Positions 1 to 14,720 of a DNA stretch of 64,000 nt are shown in pieces. The position numbers were made by a program, and so were the translations under genes. The first letter of the stretch is position 1. Each line of letters opens with the position of its first letter. The notes under the pieces were generated by a model. It searched no databases. It had not been told where the DNA came from and saw only the letters and a list, made by a program, of their open reading frames with translations. Source of the DNA: Vermamoeba vermiformis (lineage: Eukaryota); contig JBEWZL010000030.1 of assembly GCA_045837725.1 (NCBI GenBank), positions 124,001 through 188,000 on the forward strand. The letters are read 5' to 3'.

Positions 1-217
1 CTTTCAGCGAGCATTTAGTATGCTTCTTCACGTCATCCATAGTATACATTTCTTCAGGGCAAGTCTTCTTTGTCTTTACATTATTCTCTTCTTGCGTCGG
101 ATGCTCCTCGATCACCTTCTTCTTCTTTGAGCTGCCCGTAGGGATAACAGCCAAGTAGAAGAACAAGAAGACGATGAACCCGGCAACAATAGTACGAAGG
201 GTTTTTGCTGAAGCCAT
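1..217 (-). CDS. Cytochrome b5-like heme/steroid-binding domain protein with N-terminal membrane anchor (5' part only; continues past the window edge)
   Basis: Hand translation from ATG at 217: MASAKTLRTIVAGFIVFLFFYLAVIPTGSSKKKK...EEMYTMDDVKKHTK. A hydrophobic anchor precedes the cytochrome b5-type 'YT.DDV.KH' start motif. Confidence 0.6.
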   Translation of the reverse strand, partial: MASAKTLRTIVAGFIVFLFFYLAVIPTGSSKKKKVIEEHPTQEENNVKTKKTCPEEMYTMDDVKKHTKCSLK

Positions 218-454
218 TCGTGGTGTTGCGTATCAGTATTAGCTACGATTGAAATTTTTTGACTGAGCTAAAAATAACTGAGTTCAAAAAACGTTTGCCG
301 ACGTACGCTGGACTCAAAATTGTAATTCTGTTGTACCAGGTACTTACTTGAGTCTGACCAGAGCGTAGAATACGAGCGGAGGAGAAAAAGAAGGAAAGAA
401 ATTTGGTTGGGAACTCGATCTGATTCACAAAGTTAAAAAAACGAAGTTCTTGCG

Positions 455-3761: not shown

Positions 3762-5842
3762 ATGAGTCAATTCTTGGTAAGCATCGTTCAGAGGAAGACA
3801 CGATCCAAATCCTGATCAAACAAACCAATTACAGCCAGAATATTTTAAAAAAATAGAATCATGGCCACTCATTATAATAACCGATCAAATAATAATTCTA
3901 CAACAATATTCGTTGGCAAATCAATTATACAAATGGATTTGGAGTTATTATAATTTTCTAATATTATTTTATTATTAGCAACCCACTATTATCCTTCTCA
4001 AGGATGGTACCGACACTTCACAAGGTGTTCCTCAAATTATTAGCAATATTAATGCTTGCTCTATTGTCGGTGACATCGTTAGAACCACATTAGGTCCTCG
4101 TGGTATGGACAAGCTGATCTATGAAGGAAACAATAAGGCTATTATTTCAAATGACGGTGCTACTATTTTGAGACAATTGGATATTGTCCACCCTGCTGCC
4201 AGAACCTTGGTCGATATTGCTAAATCGCAAGATGAGGAGGTAACTATTCTTAATTTCGATCAAGAATGATTATTTACGTATACAAAAAATATTTATGTGC
4301 AAACAACAAATTGACCTGCTTTGCTATTGTCGATCTGAGATTCGCGATCGCGCAGAAAGTTTCTTTGTTATTAGGTCTGACAAGCGTTGTTTTTTTATTA
4401 GGTCGGCGACGGTACTACCAGTGTTGTAGTTCTTGCTGTCGAACTCTTGAACCTGTGCAAGAGCTTCGTCGAAGAAGGAATCCACTCACAGATCATTCAA
4501 CGCGGTCTTCGCCGTGCTTGCACTTTGTCCAAGCAAAAGATCCGCGAGCTCTCTGTCAAGCTTGGCAACAAGGATGCCGCGTAAGTTTTGGCAACAGTGC
4601 ACGCGTCAGAAGTCAATTTCTAATGAATAATTTGCAGCGAGAAGCGCAGTTTGTTGGAGAAGTGTGCCACGACCTCATTGAACTCCAAGTTGATTTCCGA
4701 TCAGTCTGCTTTCTTCTCTAAGATGGCTGTCGATGCTGTGTTGAAGTTGGAAGATGATTTGGACCTCAACATGGTTGGCATTAAGAAGGAACAAGGTGGC
4801 TCAGTTCAAGATTCAATGTTCATCGAGGGTGTTGCTTTCAAGAAGACTTTCTCATACGCTGGTTTCGAACAACAACCCAAGTCTTTCACCAACCCCAAGA
4901 TTTTGTTATTGAACGTCGAATTGGAGTTGAAGCGCGAGAAGGAAAACGCCGAAGTTCGTGTTGAAAGCACTGAAGAATATCAACGTATTGTGGACGCCGA
5001 GTGGAAGATTATTTACGAAAAGTTGGAGAACTGCGTTAAGACTGGAGCTCAAATCGTTTTGTCTCGTTTGGCTATTGGTGATTTGGGTACTCAATACTTC
5101 GCTGACAGAGGAATTTTCTGCGCTGGTCGTGTTCCTGACGAGGACCTTAAGCGTGTCTCTAAGGCTACTGGTGCTTCTATTCAAACCACAACTAACAACT
5201 TGACCGAAAAGAGTAAGTCGATCCGTGCTCTATTTTGTCGGTTACTAACTTTACGTAGTTTTGGGCAGTTGCGCTAAATTCGAAGAACGTCAAATCGGAG
5301 GACACCGATACAACTTGTTTACTGGTTGCCCCAACGGCAAGACTGCCACTATTATTTTGCGTGGTGGTGGTGAACACTTTATTGAAGAGGCTGATCGCTC
5401 TCTCCACGACGCCATCATGGTCGTCAAGCGCGCCGTGAAGCACAGCGACATTGTTGCTGGTGGTGGTGCCATCGAAGCCGAGTTGAGCAAATATTTACAC
5501 GAGTTCAGCAAGACTATTGCTGGCAAGGAACAAATGATCGTTGCTGCCTTCGCCAAGGCTCTCGAAGTTATCCCTCGTCAATTGGCTCAAAACGCTGGCA
5601 TCGACTCAACAGACGTGATCAACCAATTGCGCAAGAAGCACACTGAAGGAGGTGTGTGGTGGGGTGTTGACCTCGCTAACGGAGGCATCTGCGACTGCAT
5701 GGCCTCATTTGTCTGGGAGCCCGCTCTTGTCAGACTCAACGCCTTGGAAGCTGCCACTGAAGCAGCCTGCTTGATTTTGTCTGTCGACGAGACTGTGCAC
5801 AACCCTGCTGCTCAAGAGCAACAACAAGGAGGAAGAATGTAA
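3762..5842 (+). CDS. CCT7: T-complex protein 1 subunit eta (CCT7), multi-exon
   Basis: [58 protein letters not shown] and [29 protein letters not shown] are characteristic of CCT-eta. Confidence 0.96.
4257..4350 (+). ncRNA. Candidate box C/D snoRNA in CCT7 intron 2
   Basis: The intron (4240-4401) is longer than typical. It has a box C-like ATGATTA at 4266, box D CTGA at 4335 and a flanking stem (CGATC..GAA / TTC..GATCG). No rRNA target recognised. Confidence 0.3.
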
Positions 5843-6094: not shown

Positions 6095-9000
6095 ATGGAG
6101 GAGCAATTAGCCAAATCCAGCAGCGTGGATGAGACGAAAAAACTCGCGGATCTACTGCTTAAAATTGATGGCGGAAAGCCCTCGTCTAAATTAATATCGT
6201 TGCTTTTTGATATGGTAACTACATGAATTTTGTTTTTTTTTTTTCGAATTGATTTTTAAATATTGGCACAATTTCTTCACTATTAAGTTAGAAAAATAGC
6301 ATGTGATGCAATTAATACCGCAGGTTTTCTGCTTTCAAATTGTACATTGTAAATTTAAATTGCTTCTACGGAATCTAACTATCACCGAGCTCTTTACGAG
6401 CAAATTATCAACCAAACTGCGTAACAAATTAAATCATAATTTTTCGTGTTCTATTTAATTTTTACCTTTGATTGATGTCCTTTTTCAGATGGTGTCACCA
6501 GCTAGCCTCAAGCCAGAAAGCAGCAATTCAATATATAAAAAACAAAGAGGCATTAATATTGATAGTAACGCTATTCCCACGATGTTCAATCAGCTTGCAA
6601 TTGGAGATCTTGAACAAAATTACCCGACTTGCCGAACAATCCCAAAGAAATCTCGAGACGTGCCGAAGCTCGAACTTACTTAACACGTGCATAGAACTGT
6701 TATTTAGAGTCGAGAATGATGCATTATTCGGTACGCAAGAAGATTTTCGAATCTTTTTTTGACGCGAGATATTATTTTATAACTGACACTTTGACTTGCT
6801 GCAGATAAATTGCTGAAATTGACGGAAGTAATGGCACGACACAGTTTTTCAGTGACAGACATGCGGAATTATTTCCGATTACTGCGTGACACTTTTGAAA
6901 AGAAGAACATGCCGCACCTCGAGAAACTACTTCGTTCATTTCAATCAATGTGCTACAAACGAGGGCCAGCAGCCGTGTTCGATTTTGATGGCGAGAAGAG
7001 TTGCGTAAGTAACTACTTTCATACCTCGTTTAATTGAATTTCAGTCGAATATAACACTTTAATAAGGGCTTGTCAATTCCGGCTTTTAAAATGCCAGCAG
7101 GAGGATATTCATTCTGCACGTGGCTCAGAGCTGAAGATTTTCAAGATCAGCTGGCTCCTGGTGTGGAACCGAAGATATACAGGCACGTAATAATAACTCA
7201 ATAGTGCTTAGGCTAATAATGCGTTGTAGTTTTTTGAGTGCTGAAAATGTCGGCGTGTCATGCTATTTTTCACGAAATAATTTGACAGTCGCTCATCACA
7301 ACGGCAGCAGCGTGACATCACATTCATTTCAAGAGTTTATATTTCAAGCAAAAACGTGGTATTTTATAACCCTCGTCCACGTACCGAAGCTGTTTGGACG
7401 AAGTGAAATTAAGTTATTCGTCAACGGAAAACAAGTTGGAGCCGCTAGTTTGGCATATCCTCCCGCGAATATGGTACGGTTGACTATTATCGTAATGTTT
7501 GGAATTAACAATTCGACTTCAGATGGCGAAAAGTTGCATTGGTTCAGATACAGCTAGCAATCAATACAGCACTCAAATTAGCTTTAAAGGGCAGTTAGGA
7601 TCGATCTGCTTATTTTCAGAGCAACTTACCAACGAAAGAATTGCAAAATTATTTGATATCGGAGATGACTCCGAACAAATTAGATCTATCACGTCAGACA
7701 GTGTAGTGTTTATTTATTATCCAAGGGTAAGAGTATTCAATAATCAATGCATTATAGATGCTAATGAATCTTGCAGGCATTTAGCAAAGATATTTTCTTC
7801 GACGTCGCGAACAATTTGCACGCTGTTAAACTGGGCTCGTTGCAAGCCATTTTGACTGAGACCGTAAAGGACGCACTGCACTGCGTTGGAGGTCTGAAAA
7901 CACTGTTTTTATTGTTCCACCACGCAATTGACGCACCTTCACGGCCAACAATGTCCTCCTCACAAAAATTATTGGCACAACCAAGTTTCACGCCCCTGCA
8001 CTCACAACTGTTGGCTCTGTTGCTTTCATTGGTCGCATCGCTGTTAGAAGGCAGTCCTGACAACCAACAAGAAATGCTCAAAACTAACGGGTAAGTGATC
8101 GTGTTTCGCACAAAAAGGCTACAAGTGTCAGGCCGTGGAAGTAGTGACCCGAACACGATGTTGCAAAACGTCTCGGGCACGACCACACTAACAAGAATGC
8201 ACCGCTTCCCGTCCGATCAGCGAAGTTAAGCTTGTTCAGGCCTTCTTAGTACTGGGGTAGGAGACTACCTGGGAATCGGAGGTGTTGTGCTCTTTTCTTT
8301 TTTTTTTGCTTCGGATTGCTTTATTTCTTCGTTCTTATAAGTGCTAATCTTTTTGTCAGAATGGCTGTCCTGTCGTACGTGTTGGAGTCTCGTTGGAAGG
8401 ATATCATCGATGTCAACTGTTTCACTTCACTTGAAAATATTGTCGCTGCCTTGTCTAGCTCTCGTATGTTTAGCAAGTATAATGAATGTTAATAACATTT
8501 TTTGTAGCCGGCAGCGAGAAGTTGCGCGATGAAGCATACACGCATTTGTTCTTCAATTTCAAGTTCTGGACTTCAACGAGTTTCGCTATTCAAAAGCAGT
8601 TTTTGTTGATGTTACTGCGCACAACAATGAGCTTGCCATTGGTACGTGTTCATTAGTTGCTATTGAGTACTTTGCTAACGGCTTACAGCCCTTAATGAAG
8701 CAACTTTTTGGAGTTCAAAAGTTCTTGGATGTGTTGCAGACATATTATTGTTTCCCTGATGAGAACAAGACTCCGAGCCGTGACAAGCTGGTGTCATCAA
8801 CACCTTCACTTGGCACGTCCATGTTGACTGTCCTGAACTCGAACAGATCATTGTTAAAAGATGCAGAGTTGGTTGAACTACGCTCAATTGTGTTGAATAT
8901 GATGCGCCATTTAGTCAATCAATCAATCGAGGACCATGAAATGCAATCAGTATTGGCTCTCTTGCAACATCCACAAACAAAAGCGCGTCATCTGATCGAC

Positions 9001-12000
9001 ATTGAGAACTTCTTACTGTATATATTGTATAAACCTGTAAATAAGGCTCAGGAGGCGTTTAATAACGCTAAAGGTAAGTGAGCGAAGATATGATAGAATT
9101 AACAACTACTAACGAGCATTTAGGATTAAACGTAGTTCTCAATTTAATGAATCACGACGACGAAATTGTACGGCTAAATGCGCTAAAGTAAGTCCAGAGA
9201 TTGCTTCAACGATATTATGTACTGATCGTTGTTGTAGAATTACTACACGATACTTGGAACTCATCGAAGAAAAGAAAAGGAAAAAGCTTCTTACGCAACA
9301 AATCAATCCGTGGCTGCTCGATACTTTGTCAGCGCGACCCTTCACCATCACAACATACTCAGTCCTCTGTTGCATCATGTTCGCTATTCCAATCGAATCC
9401 TTGGCCATTGACCATTCGAACAGTCTACGAAAGCTCGAAGTCGATGGATTGCAACGGGTGTTTTGTCCAGGTAAGTGATGATTTGACATGCCTTTCATGA
9501 ATTGAAACTGACGTGGCCTTCAGAAATGCTTGAAGTTGTGTTCAAACTTATTCGCACAGCGTCATTGGAGGTGAAGCGTGTTGTCTTGCAAGACATTACC
9601 ATTCTAATGTCGCACTCGCATGAAGACAACATCAATTTGTGCAGTGTTTTGCTCAATCAATTTGGCTGGCCCGAGTGGTTCTTGGGTCTGCTCGCTCAGG
9701 TCACGCAACAAGTCAAGTCACCCATCGCCATGAACACAAAGGACAAAGACGATGCACTTGCAATCAAAGACATGCTCACTAACTTCTTCTCAACACTGCT
9801 CCACTATTCATTCACGCACACTCGTGACGGGTGGCGCGTGTTGCCTGACATCGAGACGTATTTGCTGTCGTACAAAGTGTCACTCAACACCGTCAACTTG
9901 ATGAGGAACCTCTATCACAACTTGATTGTCAGCTTGACCTCTGACATCAAACAGCTGTTACAGAACTCGACGAAAGAGGGTCAACAGGTACTTTACTTGA
10001 AACTCATTGCTAGCCCTTATCTAACAACTATTTAGACCTTGAAGAACGTGTTCTTCGAGAACATTGCCCATTTGATTCTGTTTGTCGAAGAGTTCATTTT
10101 CGTTCATCCAAAGCATGAAGCCATCAAGCTCGACGACCCTAAGGACCGCAACAAACTTGATCTGAATCGCCATCATTTACACATTCACATGCACCGTTCG
10201 AAGAAGCACCGTGGCGGTCTTGAACTGACCTCTGATTCTCTTGGCAGTGAGTCCGAGCACTCGAGTCACCGAGCAGTCTCTGGCAAGTGGAAAGACTTCC
10301 AGCTCTGCAAGGACTTAATCGAGCTCGCTGAGCTGTTGATGAAAGATCCGTATATTGATTGGCTCTGGACATGCGACACAACGTCTTATTTTGGTTCGAA
10401 GAAACATCACGTGTTCCACTCAATTTTGCGCCAACTATTGGCTCTCTTACGTGAGTCTGAGAACCATCTCGATCGCGCTAAGATTCGTGATAAGCAAACC
10501 GACTTAGAGCAAGCAGAAATGTTGCTTTTGGGTATCAACTCGCAGCTCATTAAAATTGAAGAGAATCGAAGTCGTTTGTTGCAGTACATTACTGGTAAGT
10601 TAGACTTGGCAACTGTAAGCAGCGTATTAATCTATTATAGTTCTGAACAATCGAGAAACTGAGGAGATGAAGCAAGTGGATCAATTCTTTGTGAAGACAA
10701 TGGACCGCGTCAAATTCATTATCTCTGTCACTGTGAAGCGAAACAACAATTCATTCAACAATCAGAAGTCACAACAACAGAACGTCGAAGTGCTCCTTTA
10801 CACACTGCATCATTTGTTTAGAGTGTTCAAGAAATCACAAAAGCACGGCGATTCTATTCACATCGTGATCTTCCCTGCCTTGAAAGACATCATTCGAACA
10901 CATCTCACGCCGTTCTTGACCAACTGTTTGGACGAGGGCCTTGAAGAGACCAATCCTTTCATTTCACATCGCAAGGCATTCGAGTTCGAATCATCGTTGC
11001 AAGACTTTGTCACTTTCATTGAAGACTGCGAATGGAAGATGCCACTGCAGCACAAGATCACCAAGTGCAAAGACAGTGTTGACTACGGATTGCTCAGATC
11101 TGTGCGCACGGTACTCAAGCGAAGAGAACAGAAATTGCTCGATCTGCAAAACTCAATCGACATGAACAAGAATCAACAAGCTGAGTACCTTAAAAGGCTA
11201 CAGACCGAGAACTACACCTTGGCGCACAAACTTAATTACAAAGAGACCGCGCGTAGATTGCGACAGCTGCAGAACGAGCACAAGCGACACTTGTTGACAA
11301 TGAAGCGATGGAACAGAATATGGCGCGAGCTAAATACACCGAGATCTGTTTGGAAGGTAAGTGAAAGTCGGTCTAACACTAGAACTGACGCATATTTTGT
11401 AGTTTGATCGTGAGAACGACGAATTTGTGTTCTGGAAGCTAGACAAGACCGAACAAAACAATCGTGAGCGAAGAAAATTGAAGAGAAATTACGAGGGCAG
11501 TCACCACACTGAAGCATCTTTCACCTACTTGAAACTGAAGTGGGAGAAAGAATTAGAGCAAGAGCGCCTTGAAAAAGAGAAGAAGGCCGCGGCAACTGTC
11601 TCGACAACTGACGGCGGTGAGGTTAAGATTAAAACACGCCCTAGAAGAAAATCTGTTGCAACCACACCGATTGCAGCCAACAATACGCAAAAGAAGAGAA
11701 AGAAGCGAAATTCGGCTAAGCGCATTGAAAAAGAGAAAGAGCGTGAGATTGAATTGTTAAGTTCTCCTCGATCTAAAATTGACGGCGAAGCAGAAATCAA
11801 TGCCTTGTTGGCTGAAGCTGATGCTGAGGACTTTGAGATTATGGAGTCTCAGCACGAAGACGAGGCACAACACACGGGCAAATCTGACCGCGAAGTGATC
11901 TTTTCAACGACCTGCGAGCTGATTTATCCCGAGATTGCAGTCCCTGGTCGAGTGGAAGTCACGCGCACTCAGATCTTGTTCACTTTTGATCGTGAAGCAC

Positions 12001-14720
12001 CAACAAAGTTCTTACAACAAACACTGCAATCGCCAACATCAATTTCTGAGGCCGAGAATCCAGAGAATTTCCATTTTTGGACCCGAAAACTGTTCGGCAA
12101 GAAGCGCAAAGATCGTGAGTGGAAGTTACATCACTTGACTGAGATTTACTCTCGCCGATATTTGCTCAATTGGACTGCGATTGAAATGTTCTTTGACAAC
12201 AGAAGGTACATTAATAGTTTCAATAATAACACTTCATCGTATTGACTTGTCGTTAGAAACTTCTTGCTCAACTTTGCAAACCGTCAACAATGCGAACTGT
12301 TCCACAAGCACGTCGTTGGACAAAAGCCCAAACAATTGCAACAAAGCTTCTTCGGACACGCCAGAGACTTGTTCAAGAAGGTTAGTTAAATAAAACTCAC
12401 GAACAAAGGCTGCGAGTACTAACGCTTGTTTAGAATGCCTACATTACCGAGCTGTGGAGGACGAGACAGATCAGCAATTTTGACTACTTGATGTTCCTCA
12501 ACAAGGTCGCTGGTCGCACTTACAATGACTTGACGCAGTACCCCGTGTTCCCGTGGATCATATCGAACTACGAGACTGAGAAGTTAGACTTGAACGATCC
12601 GAGCAATTACCGTGATTTGAGCAAGCCTGTTGGTGCCTTGGACGAGGTTCGATTGCAAAAGTTCCAAGAGCGTTACGACAACTTTATCGATGACAACATT
12701 CCACCCTTCTACTATGGCTCGCACTACTCGACGGCAGGCGCAGTGTTGTTCTATTTGATCAGAATGGAACCTTTCACCAGTCAGTTCTTGTGTCTGCAGG
12801 GAGGCAAGTTCGACTACCCCGACAGAATCTTTGACTCAATTCCTGGCACGTGGGAGAACTGTCTCAAGAGCACGACGGACGTAAAAGAATTGATCCCTGA
12901 ATTCTTTTACTTGCCCGAGTTCTTGACCAACAACAATCAATTCGATTTGGGCACGAAGCAGAACGGTAACAAGATTGGAAACATTGGTCTGCCTCCTTGG
13001 GCCAAGAACGAATTCGAATTCATTCGCATTCAGCGCGAGGCGTTAGAGTCAGACTACGTGTCACAACACTTGCACGAGTGGATTGACTTGATCTTTGGCT
13101 ACAAACAGCGCGGCGAGGAAGCAATCAAAGCCAAGAACACGTTCTACTTCTTGACGTACGAAGGTGCTATTGATTTGAACAGTCTTCAAGACCCCGTGCA
13201 GAAGCAAGCTGTCATCGATCAGATCCAGAACTTTGGTCAGACCCCTGCACAGCTCTTGATAGCTCCTCATCCTCCTCGCGATCCACCCAGTCCTAATACG
13301 ATCTTGTAAGTTATGACAGCTCTGTCATATCCGTACTAACACCTCACCAGCTACAGCTTGGCACAGCCCATTCCACCCACTGTGTTTGAAGGCACGTTGG
13401 CCATGACCCTTCAACTTCCATTCAGCACGGGATACTCGCTGATTGCTTACAAAGACAGTGTAATTGCCGTCAATAGAAACGGCGAGTATTTGATGAACAA
13501 GTGGACTTGGAAGTCTCCCAGTATGTAATACAACCAATCACGTTTGTTCTTACTAACACAGTGTGTTACAGAGGAATTGAAGGCCGAGTCTTCAGGTGAC
13601 TTGCGTGGCCTGTCAGCACCTCAAATCAATTTGCCCTTCGAAATTGATCTCGATCACGACTACAGCACTTCATCAGCCATCTCATTCACACCGCTCACCA
13701 ACTCGCAAAACGATTGGAAACAAAAGCTCAAGTTCATTGAACGCATTCAAAACAGCATCACTAGCGGACATGAGAACAAACGTTTGCCCACAGTGACAAT
13801 GCCCTCGCATGATGCTCCTGAACACTTGAGTTCTGCTCCGTTCTTGGTACGATTCAACAGTGTTTCACTCGACCTTACTTGCTAATATGTTGTTTCTGCA
13901 GCTCTTAGACGAGGATCCGTACATGGTTATCACTTACGGCTATTGGGACAACAGCTTTAAAGTCACGAAGATTGGCGAGTTTGACACGTCCAAGATGACA
14001 CGTGTCTTGCAATCAATTGTCGCGCACAAACGTCCAGTGACTGTGTGCGACGCTGCTGGCTCGTATTTGGTGACTGGTTCCATTGACGCCACTCTTCGTG
14101 TCTTCAAGATTGATCACCGCAGAAGAGACAAGCGCGAAGGATTTTACGTGAAAGATGAGTATGAACACGTCTTGTACGGTCATTACGATCCCATCACGGC
14201 TGTCAAGCTGAACTCAGATCTGGACATTGCCGTGTCGAGCTCATCGCGCGGCATCTGTCTCATCCACACTTTGACCAAGGGCCGTTTAATTCGGTCACTG
14301 CCATTGCCAGCGGACCGTGACAGCACAATTGACTTGATTCAAATCTCACGCGAGGGTCTCATTGTGTTGTACAGCACTGCTTGTCGCACACTGTGGTTGT
14401 TCTCGCTCAACGGTCAGTTACTCGCACAACGCAGCCAAGACGAAGAAATTGACGTCACTGAGCACGGCCGCTATGTCATCTCGAGCATGTTGCTGACCAA
14501 GAATGGCAAGTTCCTGATCACTGGTGGTGACAAGCACGTGACCGTGTGGAGCATGAACGATCTGACAATTGTGCACCGCTACGACCCTGTCAGCGAGAAC
14601 GTTGTCGCCATCAATTTTGCACACGACGAGCGCGCTTTGTTGGTAGCCCTGCAGAACGGCCAACTGACTATCATTTACAAACCCAACATTGGCAGTCAAC
14701 TCATCCCTGGCAATGTTTAA
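6095..14720 (+). CDS. BEACH-domain protein (ConA-like, PH, BEACH, WD40); neurobeachin/Lvs family
   Basis: [15 protein letters not shown] '[16 protein letters not shown]', BEACH '[15 protein letters not shown]...YGSHYS...[13 protein letters not shown]...[12 protein letters not shown]...FGQTPAQL', C-terminal WD40 repeats. Many short introns. Confidence 0.95.
8175..8293 (+). rRNA. 5S ribosomal RNA gene inside BEACH intron 8091-8359
   Basis: GGGCACGAC...GTGTTGTGCTC helix I ends pair. Conserved eukaryotic 5S motifs GCACCGCTTCCCGTCCGATC, GAAGTTAAGC and TTAGTACTGGGGTAGGAGACTACCTGGGAA are present. Length about 119 nt. Confidence 0.97.
8293..8307 (+). terminator. RNA polymerase III oligo-T terminator of the 5S gene
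   Basis: TTTTC plus a further run of about 10 T directly after the 5S 3' end. Confidence 0.85.

Follow-up and report, generated by a model that had tools for sequence, protein, structure and literature searches.

The question raised by this locus is how a complete 5S rRNA gene comes to lie, on the same strand, between two coding segments of a long BEACH-family gene, and whether it works there as a gene. 5S genes usually occur in tandem arrays or within rDNA units. It is probable, in our view, that this one is an independent Pol III gene, belongs as a working copy to a dispersed 5S family, and is nested in sense in an intron of the BEACH gene transcribed by Pol II. The features on which the argument depends are listed below, by their positions in the window, i.e. 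the whole 64-kb stretch of DNA that was analysed.

6095 to 14720, plus strand: neurobeachin/LRBA-type BEACH host gene, about 2,450-2,500 amino acids (Pfam, tblastn and gene model; ends approximate)
7777 to 8090, plus strand: exon just before the 5S intron, ending in ...EMLKTNG with a split codon GG/A (DUF4704; homolog alignment)
8091 to 8359, plus strand: GT-AG intron of 269 nt holding the 5S unit (sequence; homolog alignment of the junction)
8091 to 8096, plus strand: 5' splice site GTAAGT (sequence)
8140 to 8154, plus strand: AGTAGTGACCCGAAC, located at -35 to -21 relative to the start of the 5S, a putative upstream promoter element for Pol III (common to other 5S copies)
8175 to 8293, plus strand: full-length 5S rRNA gene (RF00001; 119/119 identical to the copy on metagenome contig L001)
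8293 to 8307, plus strand: T4-C-T10 run, Pol III terminator-like (read in the sequence)
8344 to 8348, plus strand: CTAAT resembling a branch site, 12 nt ahead of the acceptor AG (sequence)
8357 to 8359, plus strand: 3' splice site CAG (sequence; homolog alignment)
8360 to 8463, plus strand: exon downstream of the 5S intron, followed by the introns 8464-8507 and 8642-8688 (homolog alignment)

The identity of the host gene is given by its single-exon ORFs, in which Pfam has recognized DUF4704, DUF4800 (weak), DUF1088 (weak), PH_BEACH, Beach (E 6e-125) and NBCH_WD40, the last three of these being carried by ORFs downstream of the 5S intron. The tblastn matches of the homolog P0009 are colinear and span 6948 to 14675, while the first three and the last two introns of the gene model are doubtful. 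The DUF4704 domain is found on both sides of the 5S interval: ORF 7768-8094 matches profile positions 5-89 before it, and positions 169-285 are matched beyond the two small introns that follow. The identity of the BEACH domain does not exceed 71% with any match, or 69% with a named one (Arcella). As a separate observation, CCT-eta reaches no more than 72% with any match apart from a single one of 96%, and its named best matches are 66-67% identical and are scattered over Amoebozoa, Discoba and chytrid fungi.

Joining of position 8090 to position 8360 completes the split codon, and the protein then reads KTNG-MAVL, as the preliminary description of this DNA had proposed. The frame is kept, and the junction is free of gaps against all four displayed homologs (P0009, P0062, P0092 and P0090). 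This model scored 97.4 bits against P0009, compared to 80.1 bits for a model using the AG at 8260, and it outscored the latter for all 5 matching homologs in a database of 15. The acceptor at 8260, which lies inside the 5S gene and was chosen by the automatic model, has been rejected; it reads through the T-run, adds 33 low-complexity residues and makes every homolog alignment worse. The 5S gene is thus located wholly between donor and acceptor, with a single DUF4704 domain running across the interval, so that the nesting is supported by homology.

The splice signals themselves are of the local type. The hexamer GTAAGT begins 7 of the 21 introns in the host gene model, and CTAAC-type motifs are found close before the AG in most of them; position 8348 reads C in the DNA run X2, which gives the consensus branch motif CTAAC here as well. 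The 14 predicted introns with canonical donors, excluding the 5S intron and the next two, measure 43-62 nt, and the length of 269 nt is therefore about five to six times the usual one, in agreement with the roughly five-fold excess claimed in the preliminary description. The introns 8464-8507 (44 nt) and 8642-8688 (47 nt) were placed by hand after the automatic model had merged both, and are backed by homolog alignment. A regex scan for intron-like strings gave a modest, weakly supporting peak at 40-59 nt (31/80 and 20/86 vs 11/70 in one shuffle). No hidden exon was indicated within the 5S intron, the ORFs of the interval having no Pfam match beyond chance (E about 0.1, below the cut-off). The 5S body holds ACTAAC (8187-8192) and several AG dinucleotides, and since these could serve as cryptic branch and acceptor sites, some mis-splicing is possible.

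The RNA data neither back nor contradict the splicing of this intron, as the host exons between 7400 and 9200 carry 0 reads in all three RNA runs. The depth is zero in all 27 bins outside the three bins covering 8132-8314, again in all three runs. The runs bear the same species label as the window, and the empty exons may reflect either a weak expression of the host gene or the origin of the runs from a strain that is more than 5% divergent. Among 1,303 transcript-derived proteins of close relatives (190-2000 amino acids), none crossed the junction at E<=1e-5. From the homolog alignment and the signals together, we infer splicing from 8090 to 8360.

The 5S rRNA gene is complete. The Rfam model RF00001 matches 8175-8293 on the plus strand over its full length (model positions 1-120 of 120) with 104.7 bits, well above the gathering score of 38, and an E-value of 6.6e-22, which places the gene in that family. 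Its paired ends, noted in the preliminary description, are borne out by a cmscan alignment in which helices I-V are standard and no 'v' marks, i.e. zero non-standard pairs, appear. The conserved blocks GAAGUUAAGC and UAGUACUGGGGU..GAC.ACCUGGGAA, segments of the internal control region, agree with the consensus, and we take them to be box A and box C. The promoter of 5S rRNA genes is of type 1 and TFIIIA-dependent. This gene is the sole Rfam match within the 64-kb window, at the gathering score as well as at E<=0.1; no other rRNA gene and no tRNA gene was detected there. The T-run terminator is present, as had been described, and its position 'just before' the branch point is to be read loosely, the two being about 36 nt apart. 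A-tailed reads join at 8291 and at 8294, with 2 reads each.

This gene is a member of a dispersed family with several hundred copies. The aligned RNA reads run on into unlike flanks in 77/95, 93/110 and 40/42 cases in the three RNA runs, the contigs of the DNA run X2 break off at 8139-8174 and 8295-8304, and word depths add up to about 257,000 over the 5S compared to 387-711 over the flanks. Together with the presence of one 5S gene in 64 kb, these breaks at the unit borders and the unlike flanks characterize a dispersed family. The similarity to other copies begins at about 8139-8141 and stops at about 8302-8304. The intron thus keeps roughly 50 nt of its own unique sequence to either side of the unit, and the splice donor, branch site and acceptor all lie in these flanks. 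Contigs of X2 (records 2 and 6) connect these unique flanks to the 5S unit on both sides, although X2 is possibly the sample behind the window assembly and would then give no independent support. Not every copy is intact, as one DNA contig lacks 48 nt internally (8220 to 8269).

The 119 nt of the window copy agree with the dominant 5S reads. The only variant is 8242 C>T, seen in 0/64, 2/72 and 3/31 reads, so the gene and the RNA reads differ at no fixed position over 8175-8293. The 5S reads are not assignable to a single copy among several hundred. Reads with the untranscribed upstream motif may be carry-over of genomic DNA, since trace DNA suffices at several hundred copies.

The upstream motif AGTAGTGACCCGAAC has one match in the whole window at up to 3 mismatches, where the chance mean is 1.14, and the window alone thus gives it no significance. 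Its support comes from the other 5S copies seen in reads and contigs rather than from the window. Reads and contigs from these copies start to match the locus at about 8139-8141, and GTGACyCGAAC is found at the same spacing in loose-end consensus sequences of other 5S copies; the metagenome contig L001 has AGTAGTGACCCGA at -78 to -66 of its 5S. A role as promoter is suggested for 8140-8154. The T4-C-T10 run and the upstream motif common to the copies point to an independent transcription of the window copy by Pol III, and the homolog alignment, the motif, the intact 5S and the T-run support the earlier proposal of a Pol III-type unit in sense inside the BEACH intron.

A second locus was obtained by searching public collections for exact matches to the initial 40 nt of the 5S, a search that any change within the 40 nt escapes. 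One metagenome contig (L001) was found, and no match in genome_contigs or viral_contigs. Its 5S is 119/119 identical to the window copy and its flanks differ. A gene for an M24 peptidase has a GTAAGT donor there, and the 5S and a tRNA-Ile gene lie downstream of it on the same strand; the Pfam match of the peptidase ends at profile position 96 of 208, the ORFs after the donor have no meaningful Pfam match that would indicate hidden exons, and the contig ends before any intron acceptor. The tRNA-Ile is located 256 nt upstream of the 5S, on the same strand, and has its own T-run. L001 is thus apparently a second case of a 5S gene in sense within an intron.

These observations have to be weighed against other readings of the locus. 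The most serious of them, which we nevertheless regard as unlikely, is that the copy is intact and recent but silent owing to its position: passage of Pol II or the local chromatin would block Pol III, and the gene would be a neutral passenger, likely to decay or to be lost. The reads cannot be tied to the window copy, the contig with the 48-nt deletion shows that defective copies occur, and individual members of large dispersed families turn over fast, as has been described for the nested tRNA and snRNA genes of Caenorhabditis (PMC3342880). Against silence stand the full identity to the copy of L001, the lack of fixed differences relative to the RNA reads, and the retention of both the T-run and the upstream motif at its usual spacing. 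The latter two also weigh on the idea that the 5S RNA is trimmed, like a snoRNA, from the excised intron of the Pol II transcript, because an RNA processed from an intron would have no use for an upstream motif or for a T-run exactly at the 5S 3' end. The sense orientation in both of the two introns fits such processing, but its chance probability at two loci is 0.25, and 5S reads are present in three RNA runs in which the host gene has none. This origin of the 5S RNA is hardly credible to us.

Equally hard to credit is the absence of any intron, with the 5S in a spacer between two genes for the N- and C-terminal BEACH parts, or as a repeat misplaced in the assembly. No RNA read spans the junction, the exon depth being zero, which leaves room for it. 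A single DUF4704 nevertheless continues over the interval, the split codon and gap-free alignment fit one mRNA, a stop-and-restart structure is absent, and donor, branch site and acceptor fit the local consensus; misplacement is opposed by the X2 contigs that tie both unique flanks to the unit. An origin as a mobile element is very improbable, though not quite to the same degree; such an element would be a 5S-derived SINE or retrocopy, or else an introner-like one whose insertion made the intron. The high copy number and dispersal of the family and the abrupt limits of its similarity, at about 8140 and 8302, would suit an element of this kind. Against this, the approximately 35 nt upstream of the transcription start that are common to the copies would be missing from a retrocopy of 5S RNA, and the DNA has no A-rich tail. 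The 5S is moreover whole and identical to the RNA reads, and not a 5S head on a foreign body as in a SINE. Roughly 50 nt separate the shared unit from either splice site, and the splice signals therefore lie outside the repeat, which argues against an introner-like element.

The preferred reading is thus that of a nested and independent 5S gene. The unit would be self-contained and about 170 nt long: the motif at -35 to -21 comes first, then the 5S itself, which includes the internal control region, and the T-run terminator closes it. Pol III would transcribe the 5S independently of the host gene, and upon transcription of the host by Pol II the entire 5S unit would leave with the spliced intron. 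The location is most likely one where a compact genome tolerates an insertion of about 170 nt; introns form much of the non-coding DNA in long, intron-rich genes, which may account for the placement.

In this reading the window 5S joins two known kinds of arrangement, the dispersed 5S families and the intron-nested Pol III genes. Dispersed 5S families have been described in Neurospora crassa, Schizosaccharomyces pombe and Acanthamoeba castellanii and rated rare (PMC1635290), and dispersed 5S genes also occur in Yarrowia lipolytica (PMC2911113), in line with the earlier statement that they are known from Acanthamoeba and some fungi. The present family resembles those of the four species in its many single 5S genes, neither arrayed in tandem nor linked to rDNA, with unrelated flanks and their own terminator, and differs in that the window copy, and apparently that of L001 too, sits in a spliceosomal intron within a protein-coding gene; intronic 5S copies in the four species are not mentioned in the available parts of PMC1635290 and PMC2911113. 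The window family also has a specific common motif at -35 to -21. The 5S genes of other species are known to rely on upstream TATA-like elements.

For intron-nested Pol III genes the closest comparison is Caenorhabditis elegans, where 264 of 608 tRNA genes are nested (PMC3342880, Table 1) or, by another count, 44% of 609, an intronic tRNA being influenced by the promoter of its host (PMC4999229). As in those tRNAs, a self-contained Pol III gene is found wholly within the intron of a Pol II gene, and in L001 a tRNA gene even shares the intron with the 5S gene. Unlike in C. elegans, the gene nested here codes for 5S rRNA, and the 5S insert enlarges about five-fold an intron in a host whose introns are otherwise about 45-60 nt. 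Dicistronic tRNA-5S genes are known in Yarrowia lipolytica (Acker et al. 2008, as cited in PMC2911113), and the tRNA upstream of the 5S on the same strand in L001 is reminiscent of them. The gap of 256 nt and the tRNA's own T-run argue against a fused transcription unit there, and the window has no tRNA gene. The 5S-derived SINEs and 5S retropseudogenes of vertebrates are dispersed and often intronic. The present gene resembles these as a dispersed 5S-related sequence in an intron, and is unlike them in being full length and matching the dominant 5S reads, in sharing untranscribed upstream sequence with other copies and in having no A-tail.

In the literature searched, no report of functional 5S genes located within spliceosomal introns was found. 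The location is unusual for a 5S gene and familiar as gene nesting, of which it gives a tidy example in a compact genome. For annotation, an intron several-fold above the 45-60 nt usual here can be taken as a cue for a nested RNA gene, and cryptic AGs within the 5S can mislead gene predictors, as the model with the acceptor at 8260 has shown. The further suggestion in the preliminary description, that introns are a general way of housing 5S genes in this genome, is only hinted at by a high-copy dispersed family and by two loci of two that are sense-intronic, the second of them apparently so. A broader proposal, that Pol III genes (several hundred 5S genes and the tRNAs) are housed preferentially and in sense in the tiny introns of genes encoding proteins, is speculative, and we would consider it rather doubtful. 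If true, it would imply an insertion directed to introns or a selection for co-orientation with Pol II, and the basis of such selection may possibly be open chromatin borrowed from the host, as reported for the intronic tRNAs of C. elegans. A strong intronic and sense-oriented bias throughout the genome would make this organism a useful model for the interplay of polymerases, and its lineage would then be a natural system in which Pol II and Pol III, and splicing over a structured, protein-bound RNA, could be studied together.

The RNA family (Rfam) model of 5S rRNA matched the window at 8175-8293 of the forward strand over its full length (model positions 1-120 of 120) with a score of 104.7 bits and an E value of 6.6e-22, the gathering score being 38, and no non-standard base pairs were flagged in this alignment. 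No further Rfam match was found in the 64-kb window, either at the gathering score or at E<=0.1, and ARAGORN detected no tRNA gene in it. The signals surrounding the gene and the domains of the host gene, called with Pfam on single-exon ORFs of the + strand, are as follows.

Features of the window around the 5S gene and in the BEACH gene
7768-8094, + strand, DUF4704 (neurobeachin alpha-solenoid), profile positions 5-89 (Pfam)
8091-8096, + strand, splice donor GTAAGT (sequence)
8293-8307, + strand, T4-C-T10 run, beginning on the final base of the 5S match (sequence)
8344-8348, + strand, CTAAT followed by a pyrimidine-rich stretch (sequence)
8357-8359, + strand, splice acceptor CAG (sequence)
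8533-9081, + strand, DUF4704, profile positions 169-285 (Pfam)
12434-13309, + strand, Beach domain, E 6e-125 (Pfam)
+ strand, PH_BEACH, on a single-exon ORF of the host gene (Pfam)
+ strand, NBCH_WD40, on a single-exon ORF of the host gene (Pfam)

These domains, together with colinear matches of the Physarum transcript-derived protein P0009 spanning 6948 to 14675, identify one long neurobeachin/LRBA-type BEACH gene, whose BEACH domain shares no more than 71% identity with any database match. A dynamic-programming gene model predicted 21 introns in it, three at the start and two at the end being doubtful, and the 14 introns with a canonical donor measured 43-62 nt; the 5S-bearing intron, at 269 nt, is about 5-6 times this local norm. 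The same model fused the two introns next to the 5S interval on its downstream side into one (8464-8563). It also chose the AG at 8260, within the 5S gene, as acceptor, which adds 33 low-complexity residues through the T-run, and this choice was rejected. A model with exons 7777-8090, 8360-8463, 8508-8641 and 8689-9073 (model A) was compared with one using the AG at 8260 (model B) against 15 DUF4704-bearing homologs, five of which gave matches, and model A scored higher in all five. With P0009, model A obtained 97.4 bits and 15 gap positions, whereas model B obtained 80.1 bits and 61 gap positions. The 8090|8360 junction was free of gaps in all four displayed homolog alignments, the P0009 counterpart being, for example, NQQEILRSRGIAVVGFLLQ. 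Since the homologs favour model A and ORFs within 8091-8359 have no meaningful Pfam match, this interval qualifies as an intron on grounds of homology. The preliminary description gave correct coordinates and features for the gene and its intron, and its claim of an intact 5S gene in a BEACH-gene intron is borne out by the Rfam match and the homolog alignments.

The 5S body also holds ACTAAC (8187-8192), which equals the branch-site consensus of the introns around it, and AG dinucleotides 3' of it (e.g. 8217-8218 and 8259-8260). Such motifs could serve as cryptic splice signals, and cryptic splicing is conceivable.

Reads of three raw RNA runs with the same species label (X21-X23) and of a DNA run (X2) were compared with positions 7400-9200. 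RNA depth was zero in 27 of 27 bins outside the three covering 8132-8314. As the host gene is not seen in these runs, the 8090|8360 junction is neither confirmed nor contradicted by reads. At a 5% share, 8242 C>T was the one variant reported within 8175-8293 (0/64, 2/72 and 3/31 RNA reads). The window copy matches the dominant 5S reads in sequence, contrary to the pseudogene unlike the expressed 5S that the preliminary description had considered. Most RNA reads (77/95, 93/110 and 40/42) ran on into varied flanks unlike the window locus and derive from other 5S copies. Reads holding the untranscribed upstream motif could be genomic DNA traces; at several hundred copies, a DNA carry-over of 0.06x would account for the observed 5S depth with the single-copy flanks still at zero. 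Three joints, of two reads each, carried 19-25 untemplated A at 8291 or 8294, the 3' end of the 5S. These reads are consistent with a 5S RNA whose 3' end lies where the T-run begins, and they suggest polyadenylation of the 5S RNA, which may be a surveillance tag or an artefact of oligo-dT capture.

In X2, the contigs break at 8139-8174 and 8295-8304, and the summed word depth, which is itself not a copy number, was ~257,000 on the 5S versus 387-711 on the flanks, which indicates hundreds of 5S copies. Two X2 contigs (records 2 and 6) join both unique intron flanks to the 5S unit, so the 5S-in-intron arrangement exists in these data, X2 being possibly the source of the window's assembly. About 1% of positions differ between X2 and the window in the flanking exons and the intron, including a C for T at 8348, by which the branch-like CTAAT becomes CTAAC, the consensus form; these differences point to a second haplotype or strain in which the arrangement is kept. 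Another X2 contig (depth 188) lacks 48 nt of the 5S body (8220-8269), which implies that one or more 5S pseudogenes with an internal deletion exist elsewhere in that genome.

Similarity between the copies starts about 35 nt 5' of the 5S, and GTGACyCGAAC occurs in the loose-end consensus sequences at a spacing equal to that of 8140-8154 in the window. The unit resembles a self-contained Pol III gene, with an upstream element common to the copies, a canonical 5S body holding an internal control region, and a T-run. On transcription of the BEACH gene, splicing of the intron would remove the whole unit. The repeat (~8140-8302) ends about 50 nt inside both splice sites, so the splice signals are those of the host intron and not of the repeat, and this placement of the signals outside the unit argues against an introner-like origin of the 5S-bearing intron. 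A retrocopy or SINE is likewise argued against, as the copies share untranscribed upstream sequence, the DNA has no A-tail and the 5S body is complete.

The first 40 nt of the window gene, used as a search string for other copies, matched one metagenome contig (L001, 3,732 nt) and nothing in the genome-contig or viral-contig collections.

Features of the metagenome contig L001
13-131, - strand, 5S gene, 119/119 identical to the window copy (sequence comparison)
388-461, - strand, tRNA-Ile(AAT) gene, then its own T-run
569-564, - strand, donor GTAAGT directly after ...SDITR (sequence)

Upstream, on the same strand as the 5S, lie exons of an aminopeptidase-P/prolidase-type gene, with AMP_N matching two ORFs and Peptidase_M24 matching at profile positions 44-96 of 208 and ending exactly at ...SDITR. 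The tRNA and the 5S follow the donor in succession, both on the - strand. No coding match was found between the donor and the contig end, so the remainder of that domain must lie past the 5S. Judged from this layout, a single intron, at least 569 nt long, appears to hold both Pol III genes in sense orientation, the contig stopping 12 nt past the 5S, before any acceptor. The motif AGTAGTGACCCGA lies at 197-209 (-) in L001, at -78 to -66 of the 5S, versus -35 in the window, so this putative promoter element has no fixed spacing; a looser look-alike, GCAAGTGAGGGGACCTGAAC, occurs further upstream at about 258-283 (-).

The window 5S belongs to two known kinds of genes, dispersed 5S families and intron-nested Pol III genes. 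Scattered 5S genes are termed rare in one review, being known in Neurospora, S. pombe and Acanthamoeba (PMC1635290), and Yarrowia has scattered 5S genes plus tRNA-5S fusions (PMC2911113). Nesting of Pol III genes in introns is well documented for tRNAs. For C. elegans, Table 1 of one paper gives 264 of 608 tRNA genes as nested (PMC3342880), and another gives 44% of 609, no different from chance, and an effect of the host promoter on an intronic tRNA (PMC4999229). Full-text searches of open-access papers, judged by listings and abstracts, gave no description of functional 5S genes within spliceosomal introns.

The CCT-eta (TCP-1 family) chaperonin gene lies upstream of the BEACH gene (4254-5842, + strand); it is 96% identical to the metagenome protein P0121 and at most 72% to every other match, its named best matches (66-67%) being scattered across Amoebozoa, Discoba and chytrids. 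From its ORF end (5839) to the modelled BEACH start (6095) there is a spacer of only about 250 nt, pointing to a gene-dense genome. Compared with roughly 1 kb of intron in the BEACH gene, this makes introns a large share of the DNA able to take a 170-nt insertion without harm, and an intronic placement of 5S in such a compact genome is not surprising. Of the interpretation in the preliminary description, a Pol III-type unit nested in an intron has the support of homology, whereas intronic housing as the general habit of this genome for its 5S genes is hinted at by two of two loci, the L001 acceptor lying beyond the contig. A 5S gene in an intron is also a clear annotation pitfall, the gene model having been misled by an AG inside the 5S itself.
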